Virus record (IMG/VR): IMGVR_UViG_2734482544_000002
Direction: 5' to 3' (one strand)
Length of the DNA stretch: 21,182 bases
DNA from: a virus
Lineage: Duplodnaviria; Heunggongvirae; Uroviricota; Caudoviricetes
Part shown: piece after piece, positions 4,581 to 14,279 of the stretch
Layout: every line of letters starts with the position of its first letter
Numbering within the stretch: the first letter of the stretch is position 1
Notes under the pieces: model-generated
Database searches by the model: none
What the model saw: only the letters and a program-made list of their open reading frames with translations
What the model was told of the DNA's origin: nothing
Position numbers and translations under genes: made by a program

Positions 4581-5252
4581 TCAGCGACCAATCACCACAA
4601 CCTGACCACCGTCCCCTTCGTCTGCCGTGCTGATCTCCTGAGATACCACACGTGACCCCACGCGCATTTCACCATACAGAACAGGCATAACATTGCCCTG
4701 GGCAACCATGTTATCCAGTGAGGAGAAATAGGTGTTCTGCTTACCGTTATCCGTTGTCTGTGTGCGGGGAGTTCTGGCTTTCGGTGCCAGCATCTGAGCC
4801 ACACCGCCGAGCACCATACTGGCACCGAGAGAAAACAGAATGCCGGTCATACCACCGGCACCAATGGCAGCCCCCCATGCTGCAAGGGTGGCTCCGGCGG
4901 TAAAGAATGATCCGGCAATGGCGGCTGCTCCCAGGACAATCTGGAATACACCACCTGACTTGGCCCCGGCGACTCTGGGAACAATATGAATCACAGCGCC
5001 GTCAGGCAGAGCCTCATGTAACTGTGCCGTTAATCCGGACGTGCTAACATCCTGCCCGGCAATACGCACCTGATACCAGCCGTCGCTCAGCTTCTGACGA
5101 AACGCAGGGAGCTGTGTGGCCATCGCCCGGATGGCTTCGGCACCCGTTTTCACACGAAGGTCGATGCGGCGGCCAAATCGTTGCAAATCCCCGTAAAGGC
5201 AGATGCGTGCCATGCCCGGTGACGCCAGAGGGAGTGTGTGCGTCGCTGCCAT
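4581..5252 (-). CDS. I: Tail assembly protein I
   Basis: 223-aa ORF, the same length as lambda gpI; overlaps the K 3' end by 103 nt as in lambda; glycine/alanine-rich C-terminal hydrophobic stretch; position between K and J. Confidence 0.88.
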   Translation of the reverse strand: MAATHTLPLASPGMARICLYGDLQRFGRRIDLRVKTGAEAIRAMATQLPAFRQKLSDGWYQVRIAGQDVSTSGLTAQLHEALPDGAVIHIVPRVAGAKSGGVFQIVLGAAAIAGSFFTAGATLAAWGAAIGAGGMTGILFSLGASMVLGGVAQMLAPKARTPRTQTTDNGKQNTYFSSLDNMVAQGNVMPVLYGEMRVGSRVVSQEISTADEGDGGQVVVIGR

Positions 5253-5893
5253 TTGTCGGTATACCTCTCTCGTTTGCTCAGTTGTTCAGGAATATGGTGC
5301 AGCAGCTCGCCGTCACCACAGTAAATGGCGGCATGATTCGGCACCGATGAACCAAAACAGCACAGCAGCACATCGCCCGGCTGCGCCGCTGACAACGGCA
5401 CCTGATACAGCCCTGTGGCCTCCAGATTATCCAGATAGAGATTCTGACCGTGACGCCACCAGTCATCCTCACGATGAAAATCCGGCATCTCAATCCCCGC
5501 CAGATGGTAAGCATCCCGGAACAGCGTGTAACAGTCCGTCACCCCGTGCTCAAAGCGCCGCCCGGTAAGATGTGGCACACAGCGGAACTTGTGAATCGCC
5601 CCCCGGCAGACCAGCCACCACGGCAAATCACTCTGCACCTGCAGCCGCCGGTCGGCCTCACTCAGCCAGGGCAGACCACCGGGGTGGCTGTGGACCAGTG
5701 CCACAATCTCACCCTGCATCTCTGCCTGCAGCCAGTCTTCCGGCGACATACGGAAATACGCCTCCGGCTCACCGGAGATATTCACGCAGGGGAAATATCT
5801 TTCCCCCTCCGGCGTTCTTACCACGAAGCCGCACGACTCCGCTGGAGCACATCGCCGGGCGTGCGCCAGAATCGCTGATTCTGTCTCTGTCAT
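5150..5893 (-). CDS. K: Tail tip assembly protein K (MPN/JAMM plus NlpC/P60 domains). Long form 247 aa; the lambda-annotated 199-aa form would start at 5746.
   Basis: JAMM-like HSHPGGLPWLSEAD (HxHx7SxxD) and downstream Cys/His (GVTDCYTL…NHAAIY) typical of NlpC/P60. Start at 5893 is 6 nt after the L stop; the internal Met (…YFRMSPEDW…) gives the 199-aa form. Confidence 0.85.
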   Translation of the reverse strand: MTETESAILAHARRCAPAESCGFVVRTPEGERYFPCVNISGEPEAYFRMSPEDWLQAEMQGEIVALVHSHPGGLPWLSEADRRLQVQSDLPWWLVCRGAIHKFRCVPHLTGRRFEHGVTDCYTLFRDAYHLAGIEMPDFHREDDWWRHGQNLYLDNLEATGLYQVPLSAAQPGDVLLCCFGSSVPNHAAIYCGDGELLHHIPEQLSKRERYTDKWQRRTHSLWRHRAWHASAFTGICNDLAAASTFV

Positions 5894-5898
5894 GGGAT

Positions 5899-6597
5899 TT
5901 ACTGCGAAAGTTTGTTAATGGAAAGGAAGCCGCCAAAGTTGCCGACGTTATTGCGAAACTTACAGCCACTCAGGCATTTGCTGCATTTATCCTTCGTGAT
6001 GTCGGACGTTGGCTGGTCATATTCATCCGCGACCGCCGGACCGTGATAACCGCACTCATCGCCGCGATAGGTCCAGGTGCAGGTGTTGGCCAGCATGATA
6101 CGTCCCGGAAAAACAGCGCCATCTGTTTCCGTCGGCGTGGACAGTACAAAAGAGGCACTCACCGCGCTCAGTTCGCTGCACTGCTCAATGCGCCAGCGGC
6201 TGATCACCTCCTGCTCCGGATCGGCGTCACTGTTTCCGTTGACGAAGTTCACCGCATCCAGAAAACGGGCGTAAACCTTACGCCGGACCACCGTTCCGCC
6301 GACCAGACTCTGTAGATCTTCCGCCATCCCGGTGACCATACCGTACAGGTTAGAAACCATCAGCGTGGGGCGCGTACTGGTGCCTTTGCCATTCAGTTCA
6401 AAACCACTCCCCTGAATGGGATACGGCTGATACTGTCGCCCCTGCCAGGTGACCGGCTCACCTTTTTCGTTCTGCTCATTACAGAAAAAATAACGTTCTC
6501 CACCGACCTCTGTCAGATCGATTTCCCAGAGCACCACGCTGGCCGACTGCTCCGCACGGGTGCATTCATTCAGTGTTTCCTGCCGGATATCCTGCAT
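5899..6597 (-). CDS. L: Tail tip assembly protein L
   Basis: 232-aa ORF, the same length as lambda gpL; start codon overlaps the M stop by 1 nt; cysteine-rich C-terminus (CSKCLSGCKFRNN) consistent with the Fe-S cluster motif of gpL. Confidence 0.88.
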   Translation of the reverse strand: MQDIRQETLNECTRAEQSASVVLWEIDLTEVGGERYFFCNEQNEKGEPVTWQGRQYQPYPIQGSGFELNGKGTSTRPTLMVSNLYGMVTGMAEDLQSLVGGTVVRRKVYARFLDAVNFVNGNSDADPEQEVISRWRIEQCSELSAVSASFVLSTPTETDGAVFPGRIMLANTCTWTYRGDECGYHGPAVADEYDQPTSDITKDKCSKCLSGCKFRNNVGNFGGFLSINKLSQ

Positions 6598-6926
6598 CAG
6601 TTCACCACCTGTTCAAACTCTGCGCTGAACTCAACACGCAGCATACTGACCCGCGACGACCATTTTGCGCAGGTCACCTTTATCTGCCGCCACTCATAAG
6701 GCGGCGTCCACAGAAAGGCTTTCCAGCCCCCGTGCTCTTCCAGAAACGACTCCAGTACCATGGCCTCCTCACGGGGGACAGAAAGCGTCACGCTGTACGT
6801 TTTCAGGTTGGCATTCAGCCCGGCAGGCGCTCGCTGGGAATAGCCATCACCAAAGCGCACCTTTCTTACAGAAGGGGCCGAAGCCACATCCATACCGGGT
6901 TTCACTTTCCAGCGGAAGGTTTTCAT
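6597..6926 (-). CDS. M: Tail tip assembly protein M
   Basis: 109-aa ORF, the same length as lambda gpM; ATGA overlap with the H stop; position between H and L. Confidence 0.88.
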   Translation of the reverse strand: MKTFRWKVKPGMDVASAPSVRKVRFGDGYSQRAPAGLNANLKTYSVTLSVPREEAMVLESFLEEHGGWKAFLWTPPYEWRQIKVTCAKWSSRVSMLRVEFSAEFEQVVN

Positions 6927-9484
6927 CGTCCACCTCCGGAGAACAGGCCACCATCACGCATCTGTGTCTGAATTTCATCACGGGCACCCTTGCGGGCCAT
7001 GTCATACACGGCCTTCATCATCTGTGGACCTGGCAGACCATTCGTACCGTCGTTCTGAATCACCACGTGATTGTTCTGATTAAAATTAATGCCTTCAGCC
7101 CGCCGCATCTGCGCCGGACTTCCGGCACCGCCCACATAACCACCTTCCGCATAGCCGCGCATCAGCCGGTAGAGATTCCCCACGCCAATCCGGCTGGTTG
7201 CCTCCTTCGTGAAGACAAATTCACCACGGTGAACAATCCCCGCTGGCTCATATTTGCCGCCGGTTCCCGTAAATCCCCCGGTTGCAAAATGGAATTTCAC
7301 CGCAGCGGCCTGAATGGCTGTACCACCTGACGCGGATGCGCCGCCACCAACAGCCCCGCCAATGGCGCTGCCGATACTCCCGACAATCCCCACCATTGCC
7401 TGCTTAAGCAGAATTTCTGTCATCATGGACAGCACGGAGCGGGTGAAGCTGCGCCAGTTCTGTTCACTGCCGGTCAGCATCGCCGCCATATTCTGTGCAA
7501 TACCATCAAAGGTCTGCGTGGCTGCACTTTTAACCTGTGACATACTGTCCGTGGCGCTCTCTTCCCACTCACTCCAGCCGGACTTCAGGCCTGCCATCCA
7601 GCTCCCGCGAAGCTGGTCTTCAGCCGCCCAGGTCTTTTTCTGCTCTGACATGACGTTATTCAGCGCCAGAGGATTATCGCCATACTGTTCCTTCAGGCGC
7701 TGTTCCGTGGCTTCCCGCGCTGCCTGCCGGTCAGTCAGCCCCCGGTTTTTCGCATCAATGGCTGCCCGTTTTGCCCGTTGCTGCTGTGCGAATTTATCCG
7801 CCTGCTGCGCCAGCGCATTCAGGTGCTCCTGATACGTAACCTTGTCACCAAGTGCAGCCAGCTGGCGTTTGTACTCCAGCGTCTCGTCTTTATGCGCCAG
7901 CAGGGATTTCTCCTGTGCGGACAGCTGGCGACGTTGTGCCGCCTCCTCCAGTACCGCGAACTGACTTTCTGCCTTCCACAAATCCCGGCGCTGCTGGCTG
8001 ATTTTCTCATTCGCTCCGGCATGCTTCTCCAGCGTCCGGAGTTCTGCCTGAAGCGTCAGCAGGGCCGCATGAGCACTGTCTTCCTGACGATCGCCCGCAT
8101 ACACCTTCACGCCGGACTGTTTCGGCTTTTTCAGCGTCGCTTCATAATCCTTTTTCGCCGCCGCCATCAGCGTGTTGTAATCTGCCTGCAGGATTTTTCC
8201 GTCTTTCAGTGCCTTGTTCAGTTCTTCCTGACGGGCGGTATATTTCTCCAGCGGCGTCTGCAGCCGTTCGTAAGCCTTCTGCGCCTCTTCGGTATATTTC
8301 AGCCGTGACGCTTCGGTATCGCTCTGCTGCTGCGCATTTTTGTCCTGTTGACGCTGTTGATCTACCCTCTTTTGGGCTGCATCCCGCTCCAGGCGTTTTT
8401 TTTCACGATCATCCCAGTAACGCGCCCGTGCTTCATCGTTAACGAAATAATCATCCTTGCGCAGATTCCAGATGTCGTCTGCTTTCTTAAACGCAGCCTC
8501 TGCCTTAATCAGCATCTCCTGCGCGGTATCAGGACGACCAATATCCAGCACCGCATCCCACATGGATTTGAATGCACGTGCAGTCCTGTCTGCCCAGGTC
8601 TCCAGCGTGCCCATGTTCTCTTTCAGGCGGCGGGTCTGGTCATCAAACCCTTTCGTTGCGGCCTCGTTCGCCGCCTGCAATGCCCCGGCTTCATCGCCGG
8701 AACGCTGCAACTGAGCAACATACGCAATCTGCTCCGCCGTCACGTTATGGAACTGGCGTGCCATCGCCGTCAGCCCCGACGTCGGGTCTGTGGTCAGCTT
8801 CCCGAAGGCTTCAGCGACCTTGTCCACCTCCACGCCGGATGCATAGGAGAAACGCGCCACACTCTGGCTGATGGACGCAATCTGAGCCTCACCGCTTACC
8901 CCCGCCTTAACCAGTGCGCTGAGTGACTCGCTGGTCTGGTTAAACGTCAGCCCTGCCGCCTGCCCGGCTCTGGACAGGACCAGCATACGATCTGCCGTCA
9001 GTCCCGCCTGATTACCGGAAAGGACCAGCGTTTTGTTGAAATCGGACAGGGTTGAGTTGCCCTGATACCAGGCATACGCCAGCGCACCGGTCGCCACCGC
9101 CAGCGAGGTGGCCCCCACCATCGGCAGGGTGATCGCGCCGGCAAGCCCCCTGAACATGGGGATCATCCCGCCGAAGGAGTCCTTAACCTGACCACCCTGT
9201 TGCAGCAGGATCAGCCAGGGATTCTGCCCCCCTGCAAGCTGCGTGGCCACGTCGGTGAACTGTGCAGGCAGCATACGCATGGCGGCTTTATACTGCCCGA
9301 CGGAAATCCCCGCTTTCTGTGCAGCCAGCGCCTGTCGGCTCAGCGACTGTTCAACGACTGCCGCTGTTTTTTTCGCATCACTTTCCGTACCGGAAAAATG
9401 ACGCCTGACTCTGGCCATCTGCTCGTCAAATCTGGCCGCATCCAGACTCAAATCAACGACCAGATCGCCTACCGGTTCAGCCAT
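6923..9484 (-). CDS. H: Tail tape measure protein H
   Basis: 853-aa ORF, the same length as lambda gpH; long Ala/Gln/Glu/Lys-rich coiled-coil-like central region; glycine-rich hydrophobic segment near the C-terminus; position after G/T. Confidence 0.92.
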   Translation of the reverse strand: MAEPVGDLVVDLSLDAARFDEQMARVRRHFSGTESDAKKTAAVVEQSLSRQALAAQKAGISVGQYKAAMRMLPAQFTDVATQLAGGQNPWLILLQQGGQVKDSFGGMIPMFRGLAGAITLPMVGATSLAVATGALAYAWYQGNSTLSDFNKTLVLSGNQAGLTADRMLVLSRAGQAAGLTFNQTSESLSALVKAGVSGEAQIASISQSVARFSYASGVEVDKVAEAFGKLTTDPTSGLTAMARQFHNVTAEQIAYVAQLQRSGDEAGALQAANEAATKGFDDQTRRLKENMGTLETWADRTARAFKSMWDAVLDIGRPDTAQEMLIKAEAAFKKADDIWNLRKDDYFVNDEARARYWDDREKKRLERDAAQKRVDQQRQQDKNAQQQSDTEASRLKYTEEAQKAYERLQTPLEKYTARQEELNKALKDGKILQADYNTLMAAAKKDYEATLKKPKQSGVKVYAGDRQEDSAHAALLTLQAELRTLEKHAGANEKISQQRRDLWKAESQFAVLEEAAQRRQLSAQEKSLLAHKDETLEYKRQLAALGDKVTYQEHLNALAQQADKFAQQQRAKRAAIDAKNRGLTDRQAAREATEQRLKEQYGDNPLALNNVMSEQKKTWAAEDQLRGSWMAGLKSGWSEWEESATDSMSQVKSAATQTFDGIAQNMAAMLTGSEQNWRSFTRSVLSMMTEILLKQAMVGIVGSIGSAIGGAVGGGASASGGTAIQAAAVKFHFATGGFTGTGGKYEPAGIVHRGEFVFTKEATSRIGVGNLYRLMRGYAEGGYVGGAGSPAQMRRAEGINFNQNNHVVIQNDGTNGLPGPQMMKAVYDMARKGARDEIQTQMRDGGLFSGGGR

Positions 9485-13946: not shown

Positions 13947-14279
13947 TTAAACGATGCTGATTGCCGTTCCGGCAAACACGGTCCGTTTTTTCGTCTCGTC
14001 GCTGGCAGCCTCCGGCCAGAGCACATCCTCATAACGGAACGTGCCGGACTTGTAGAACGTCAGTGTGGTGCTGGTCTGGTCAGCAGCAACCGCAAGAATG
14101 CCAACGGCAGCACCGTCGGTGGTGCCATCCCACGCAACCAGCTTACGGGTGGAGGTGTCCAGCATCAGCGGGGTCATTGCAGGCGCTTTCGCACTCAATC
14201 CGCCGGGCGCGGTTGCGGTATGAGCCGGGTCACTATTGCCCAGCGGCTGGTAATGGGTAAAGGTTTCTTTGCTCGTCAT
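13947..14279 (-). CDS. D: Capsid decoration protein D
   Basis: [41 protein letters not shown]…, 110 aa from the second Met; recognisably lambda gpD. Confidence 0.93.

Follow-up and report, generated by a model that had tools for sequence, protein, structure and literature searches.

The question posed by this locus is where its gene K begins: at an ATG directly behind the stop of the preceding gene, or at an internal ATG 48 codons further on, where the phage lambda reference annotation places the start. Very likely K is a two-domain protein of 247 residues translated from the first of these codons (ATG 5893), and the 199-residue lambda K is artefactual. This answer draws on the open frame, its conservation, the completeness of an N-terminal domain, the modelled fold of that domain and a discrepancy in the lambda reference, all of them established in the present analysis.

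In the DNA analysed (21,182 nucleotides, here called the window), the left and morphogenetic arm of a lambda-like prophage, the genes follow one another on the minus strand in the order Nu1, A, portal, protease, capsid E, Z, V, H, M, L, K, I, J. Upstream of K on that strand lie H (6923-9484), M (6597-6926) and its immediate neighbour L (5899..6597), a tail tip protein matched by the Pfam family Phage_tail_L with an E value of 1e-100, while gene J, for the central fibre, runs from 4520 downward on the same strand. K sits between L and gene I, which bears a ubiquitin-like domain (Ubl), and upstream of J, an order shared with lambda, 434 and mEp460, and this gene position makes it a member of the TAPK family. 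As a side observation, runs of N at 1829-2113 (285 bases) and 2615-2864 (250 bases) fall inside the expected gene J, so that its frame translates into 688 residues that include a stretch of X and end in a nonsense C-terminus. Two plus-strand open reading frames, 72-524 and 524-2227, matched no Pfam family and probably shadow J.

Gene K and its reading frame

Full-length K occupies 5150..5893 on the minus strand, with an ATG start codon at 5893..5891, 247 codons and a stop at 5150. The TAA of L (5901..5899) is followed by the five-base spacer atccc (5898..5894), the two together filling 5894..5901. The original prediction, made from the sequence, had K open from 5893 in the 247-residue frame, as the list of open reading frames confirms; its distance of six nucleotides past the L stop was right to within one base, the actual spacer being five. 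It had also put the lambda-type start at 5746, a position that needs correction, as the internal ATG (Met49, the K start annotated in J02459 and NC_001416) lies at 5747..5749 on the minus strand, read 5749..5747, and is separated from the end of the stop codon by exactly 600 nucleotides, or 199 amino acids. The segment upstream of it, which has no counterpart in the lambda reference annotation, comprises exactly the 48 codons that had been proposed (5750..5893, minus strand). The long-form N-terminus reads MTETESAILAHARRCAPAESCGFVVRTPEGERYFPCVNISGEPEAYFR up to the boundary between extension and internal Met, from which it continues as MSPEDW; MTETESAILAHAR and CAPAESCGFVVR are peptide segments of the same long form.

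Within the extension lies Glu19 (codon 5837..5839, minus strand, in the context P-x-E-S/x-C-G), the predicted general-base glutamate of a JAMM motif whose zinc-ligand part, H68-S-H70-x7-S78-x2-D81, is encoded at 5651..5692 on the minus strand. The distance from Glu19 to His68 of H68-S-H70-PGGLPWL-S78-EA-D81, a perfect HxH-x7-S-xx-D, is 49 residues, the spacing that had been anticipated for the JAMM glutamate. Equally well founded was the claim that the short form lacks a properly spaced glutamate, its only ones (residues 52, 58 and 62) being 6-16 residues N-terminal to His68.

An open run of this length is unremarkable by itself, as 48 stop-free codons would arise by chance with a probability of about 0.18 at the local composition (59.5% G+C), so that the case for the extension needs conservation, codon-position pattern and domain completeness. 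The same figure may be claimed for the opposite reading, by which the 199-residue K is the sole real protein and the 144 nucleotides upstream of it are an untranslated spacer between L and K, open by chance. This is also what is annotated in J02459, NC_001416 and UniProt TIPK_LAMBD, and the short K is kept, with an annotated ribosome-binding site (RBS), in OM418626. The behaviour of the extension in homologues, described next, leaves this reading with a vanishingly small probability.

Conservation, selection and fold of the extension

Across 14 full-length homologues of 69-97% identity (from Escherichia, Shigella, Salmonella, Citrobacter and Edwardsiella) 16 positions of the extension are invariant: I8, L9, A12, A16, P17, E19, S20, C21, G22, V24, G30, Y33, P35, N38, S40 and F47. 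An exhaustive HMMER search against 1.8 billion cluster representatives returned 1731 proteins at E <= 1e-10, and among the matches listed are distant full-length relatives of 228-271 residues and 34-59% identity, whose own residues 3-15 align with query residues 3-12, indicating that they share the N-terminal start of the window K. When 29 such relatives (34-59% identity) were aligned with the window protein, C21, G22, N38, H68, S69, H70 and D81 were invariant over the 30 sequences and E19 and S78 were kept in at least 90%, while position 49 was mostly Ile. Amino-acid conservation in the extension thus reaches relatives at 34% identity and Met49 is not conserved, both of which count against a K that begins at Met49.

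The frame itself is equally persistent. An uninterrupted full-length match to K was found in 117 of 134 loci drawn from genome, viral and phage collections, the remainder comprising matches cut off by a contig end, three prophage copies in decay and the lambda reference. Those three copies (L047 and L048 from E. coli ECMA0423, and L050 from Shigella flexneri SFBU1023) are decaying cryptic prophages, with frameshifts and premature stops scattered through the chromosomal K, and the lambda reference apart no other K homologue encountered had its N-terminal region broken. The stops or frameshifts in the upstream region that would have spoken against the long form are therefore confined, among the 134 loci, to these three copies and the reference.

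Substitutions in the extension are of the coding type. Compared with E. albertii, codons 2-48 contain 13 synonymous and five non-synonymous differences (dN 0.049, dS 0.50, omega 0.10), close to the values for codons 49-105 (omega 0.17) and 106-247 (omega 0.11); dN/dS was limited to such closer comparisons because dS is saturated against the Edwardsiella, Budvicia and Limnobaculum homologues. In 90 unique close sequences the polymorphic sites of the extension are distributed over codon positions 1, 2 and 3 as 12, 7 and 31 (p = 6.6e-5), a pattern like that of the downstream part of K. Both measures agree in showing the 48 codons to evolve as the rest of the gene does.

Profile searches point the same way. 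On the 247-residue form the Pfam family Prok-JAB (PF14464, cut-off 25 bits) scores 52.6 bits and is aligned over model positions 4-103 of 114, whereas on the 199-residue form it scores 22.9 bits, under the cut-off, and is aligned over positions 63-103 only. The 48-residue piece by itself is aligned to model positions 3-41, so that the extension alone matches essentially the first 40 positions of the profile. The motif E-x(n)-H-S/T-H-x7-S-x2-D is satisfied by the 247-residue form alone, and its five positions are at least 90% conserved in the 30 sequences. The resulting JAB/MPN+ domain (residues 4-98, 5600..5884, minus strand, by PF14464 and Foldseek) is followed by an NlpC/P60 domain (residues 111-224, 5222..5563, minus strand, by Pfam PF00877 and Foldseek) with Cys121, His187 and His199/His200, to which NLPC_P60 (PF00877) gives 49.2 bits against a cut-off of 23; in the 30-sequence alignment D120, H187 and H200 of this part are invariant and C121 and H199 are kept in at least 90%. 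By profile and conserved residues, then, the C-terminal domain of K is classed from its sequence as an NlpC/P60 (C40) papain-like peptidase. NCBIfam offered no K-specific model; its desampylase model stayed below threshold (29 bits, cut-off 130), and its NlpC/P60 matches were weak.

An AlphaFold2 model built from the 30-sequence alignment (mean pLDDT 95.2, pTM 0.90) gives residues 1-48 a helix (3-15) and a hairpin of two strands (21-27 and 30-36) at a pLDDT of 94-98. As modelled, the extension supplies core elements of the JAMM/MPN fold and is no mere tail. Foldseek searches of the PDB with the N-terminal domain retrieved PfJAMM1 (5ld9 and 5lda, free and bound to the ubiquitin-like SAMP2), Rpn11, CSN5 and AMSH with a probability of 1.00, the PfJAMM1 match having a TM-score of 0.62 normalised to the target 5ld9 and an rmsd of 3.0; the C-terminal domain retrieved NlpC/P60 peptidases of the MepS/Spr type. 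A profile search of PDB sequences found JAMM1 at E 2.5e-10, with E19 aligned to the Glu of 'vEVCGF' and the HSH...S..D segment aligned too. By motif, profile and predicted fold the N-terminal domain of K is thus assigned to the JAMM/MPN+ family. The domain match, the conservation, the dN/dS ratio and the codon-position pattern together refute a K of short form only, whose reference frame, moreover, is shut merely by one missing base. The suggestion that the functional K may be the long form is accordingly borne out by conservation, selection, domain completeness and the model.

The missing base in the lambda reference and the start of translation

The 199-residue annotation arises because J02459 and NC_001416 lack one G ten bases upstream of the annotated ATG. 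In the window this base lies at 5759..5759 (a plus-strand C, read as G on the minus strand), corresponds to the position after nucleotide 14266 of J02459, and keeps the 247-residue frame open. In NC_001416 the K frame is shut six codons upstream of the annotated ATG (a stop followed by AGGYFRMSPEDW), and the sequence there is GGAGGC-TATTTCC (that is, GGAGGC-TATTTCCGTATG), whereas the window, 434, mEp460 and nine further lambda-K loci have GGAGGCGTATTTCC (GGAGGCGTATTTCCGTATG); several of those nine are lambda contigs of 48.4-48.5 kb, contaminants in unrelated assemblies. Since the missing base puts the upstream codons in another frame, the start was annotated at the first ATG preceded by a good Shine-Dalgarno sequence (GGAGG, 10-11 nucleotides upstream). 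The 199-residue lambda K is thus an annotation artefact of a base missing from the 1982 sequence. The original prediction, in contrasting the long frame with a lambda-type start, assumed a start that does not genuinely exist, since resequenced lambda has the same open 247-residue frame; the missing G as the cause of the short annotation had been overlooked.

That the missing base might be real in the sequenced lambda stock, with K produced through programmed or spontaneous frameshifting or with an NlpC/P60-only K sufficing, is scarcely credible. A BLAST search with 271 nucleotides of the lambda reference against 50,697 phage records found the shorter version in four records only of 209 (J02459, NC_001416, OR474059 and OR974322), and their number is what this reading has in its favour; however, J02459 and NC_001416 are the same sequence, OR474059 carries no annotation and OR974322 may have been derived from the reference. 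The next 22 records among the matches listed align over 272 nucleotides for the 271-nucleotide query at 99.6% identity, and include lambda imm21/imm434/h434, DE3 and HK629/HK630 besides KT232076, LC730321 and PV340536. The G is present in all other listed independently sequenced lambda phages and hybrids (KT232076, LC730321, PV340536, OM418625-7 and DE3 EU078592), and also in full-length lambda contaminant contigs. Coordinates offer a further indication: between NC_001416 and OM418626 the end of L moves from 14127 to 14126, yet the start of K stays at 14276, which fits two compensating single-base errors in the lambda reference. In a supplier's notes on the lambda sequence an inserted G is given for 14266 and a deletion for 138, something that the coordinate offsets support indirectly only. 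Judging from the other lambda records, the missing G of J02459 is very probably a sequencing error and not a private mutation of the sequenced stock.

Records differ in how they handle the gene. K is annotated with 744 nucleotides (247 amino acids) in PV340536 (lambda), 434 and mEp460, and with 636 nucleotides in KT232076. In OM418626 (lambda imm434, 2022; locus L053, 383-772) the old ATG at 14276 is kept and the GGAGG marked as RBS even though its own frame is open, and the presence of the G beside a short K indicates that the reference error is spreading by annotation transfer. Near-identical lambda DNA was also encountered in draft assemblies labelled as Pseudomonas, Shewanella, Chromatium, Neobacillus, Bradyrhizobium, Streptomyces, Vibrio, Leeuwenhoekiella and others (loci L005-L017, L019, L026, L027, L029, L030, L034, L039, L043-L045, L049 and L051). 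Some of these fill whole contigs of some 48.4-48.5 kb, in many cases with a coverage of about 1, and the lambda loci in those drafts look like control or vector DNA contamination and not like real prophages.

Initiation at the long start raises a question of its own, since the ATG at 5893 is not preceded by a Shine-Dalgarno motif (its anti-SD duplex has a dG of +0.7 kcal/mol, where those of H, M and L lie between -7 and -11). Its place five nucleotides after the L stop, together with this lack, makes coupling to L likely, and K is probably initiated by termination-reinitiation, a mechanism that we infer from the arrangement of the two genes; the stop-to-start gap is 4-11 nucleotides in seven of nine scorable loci, the window included, from E. 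albertii to Limnobaculum. The internal ATG, on the other hand, is preceded at a distance of 11 nucleotides by the Shine-Dalgarno-like GGAGG (5761..5765, minus strand), whose anti-SD duplex of -9.5 kcal/mol is on par with those of the genuine H, M and I starts. This contrast between the two starts invites the idea of two isoforms, in which phages of the lambda clade would initiate also at ATG49 through the GGAGG and make a 199-residue product consisting of the NlpC/P60 peptidase and half a JAB domain. Codon 49 is indeed ATG in 91 of 101 unique sequences (the others being ATA in three, ATC in three, CTG in two, GTG in one and one gapped row), and phages with an NlpC/P60-only TAPK were noted by Iyer et al. 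(PMC1779556). However, the 11-nucleotide spacing exceeds the optimum, and the GGAGG doubles as coding sequence within codons Pro43-Glu44-Ala45, of which Pro43-Glu44 are conserved. Nor do the two elements vary together: synonymous variants that break the GGAGG (GAA, CCT) occur with ATG49 kept, ATG49 is replaced by ATA, ATC or CTG with the GGAGG kept, Citrobacter and Edwardsiella homologues have Met49 but no GGAGG, and in distant relatives position 49 is Ile. According to the model, moreover, the 199-residue product would begin within the MPN fold, just ahead of helix 51-60, and would probably fold poorly. Two isoforms are therefore improbable, although less so than either of the readings rejected above. 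[quoted passage not shown]

A scan of 5100-6700 for promoters and terminators gave nothing above shuffled expectation, and an internal promoter for a short K transcript was dropped for lack of any such signal. In the searchable literature no protein-level evidence (N-terminal sequence, mass or ribosome profiling) was found for either K start.

Proposed function of K and comparison with known systems

The preferred reading, a 247-residue K from ATG 5893, leads to a proposal for its function in which the catalytic roles are predicted and the gpI substrate is taken from the literature. Residues 1-105 would form a complete JAMM/MPN+ zinc isopeptidase domain, with Glu19 as putative general base, His68, His70 and Asp81 as candidate zinc ligands and Ser78 nearby, and residues 106-247 an NlpC/P60 papain-like peptidase domain (Cys121, His187, His199). 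The task of K as tail tips are assembled would be to remove the N-terminal ubiquitin-like domain of the gene I product at a Gly-Gly, and K would itself end up outside the virion. Gene I (4581..5252, minus strand, 223 residues), the proposed substrate gene, shares 103 nucleotides with the 3' end of K; Pfam Lambda_tail_I matches residues 14-97 of its protein, and the ubiquitin-like domain ends in S99-G100-G101 (codons at about 4950-4958, minus strand).

Much of this proposal has precedent. The JAMM motif was listed in lambda K in 2003 (PMC300881), and the combination of JAB and NlpC/P60 domains was described under the name 'TAPK' by Iyer, Burroughs and Aravind in 2006 and predicted to cut the I Ubl at its C-terminal glycine (PMC1779556). 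Cleavage of the gpI Ubl by gpK as an assembly checkpoint was presented by the Davidson laboratory in a 2025 talk, available as a meeting summary only (PMC12908700). Lambda gpK is absent from virions (PMC10721106) and is nevertheless needed for tail assembly (PMC10721106, PMC12617516). In the cryo-EM structure of the lambda tail the first resolved residue of gpI is 101 (PMC11101478), which in the window's I protein falls right at S99-G100-G101, an observation that fits removal of the Ubl at this site rather than the disordered N-terminal domain assumed in that study.

Records disagree on the start of gene I no less than on that of K. From ATG 5252 (SD dG -9.3), as in lambda, I has 223 residues, whereas in mEp460, KT232076 and PV340536 it starts at a GTG overlapping the K stop. 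The equivalent GTG in the window, at 5153, would give 190 residues, a form that keeps Lambda_tail_I model positions 26-83 only and thus has a truncated ubiquitin-like domain; window position 5213 is flagged by the same question alongside 5153 and 5252.

The long form of K and its JAMM/JAB nature are therefore already known (PMC300881, PMC1779556), and the 247-residue form is the usual output of gene callers and of the NCBI pipeline for thousands of prophages. The sole point not found stated in the searchable literature, where no paper on the K start problem or on the missing base of J02459 came to light, is the missing G as the cause, a matter of database curation. As far as tail-tip assembly biology is concerned, the result restates comparative genomics of 2003 and 2006 and recent experiments. 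Its value is practical and not conceptual: J02459, NC_001416 and TIPK_LAMBD still give K without its first 48 residues, including the predicted catalytic Glu, so that studies relying on those records overlook the deubiquitinase-like domain. One structural review of 2020, for example, analysed a gpK of '199 residues' and recognised a peptidase at residues 52-182 only (PMC7291167). For cloning, modelling or mutating gpK the 247-residue form is the one to use.

Among known systems the closest is lambda gpK itself (TIPK_LAMBD, AAA96551, NP_040598), the same gene in the same H-M-L-K-I-J order, in a group of phages with about 97% nucleotide identity to the window. Its C-terminal 199 residues correspond one to one with those of the window K, and the difference is one of record, 199 residues in the reference against 247 in the window and in resequenced lambda. 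The K proteins of 434, mEp460, HK629/HK630 and lambda PV340536 are identical to the window K in length, start and domain pair, and the 'C40 family peptidase / phage tail protein' of Escherichia, Shigella and Salmonella prophages is the same 247-residue K, with nothing of substance to tell them apart. The exact window protein is deposited as 'C40 family peptidase [Shigella]' and occurs on at least 1000 contigs, under a product name that ignores the JAB domain, while the 199-residue sequence in the protein collection is that of TIPK_LAMBD/AAA96551. The window K shares with the TAPK family (PMC1779556), of which it is a member, the two-domain architecture and the place beside a gene I with an N-terminal Ub-like domain and a C-terminal Gly. 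Further afield, the JAMM/MPN+ enzymes (P. furiosus JAMM1, AfJAMM, Rpn11, CSN5 and AMSH) have the same E-x(n)-H-S-H-x7-S-x2-D motif with the same 49-residue spacing, at about 20% identity to K, which differs in being fused to an NlpC/P60 domain and apparently lacks the Ins-1 and Ins-2 insertions typical of the eukaryotic enzymes. They may differ in substrate as well, that of K probably being a linear fusion within a phage structural protein and that of the archaeal and eukaryotic JAMM enzymes an isopeptide conjugate.
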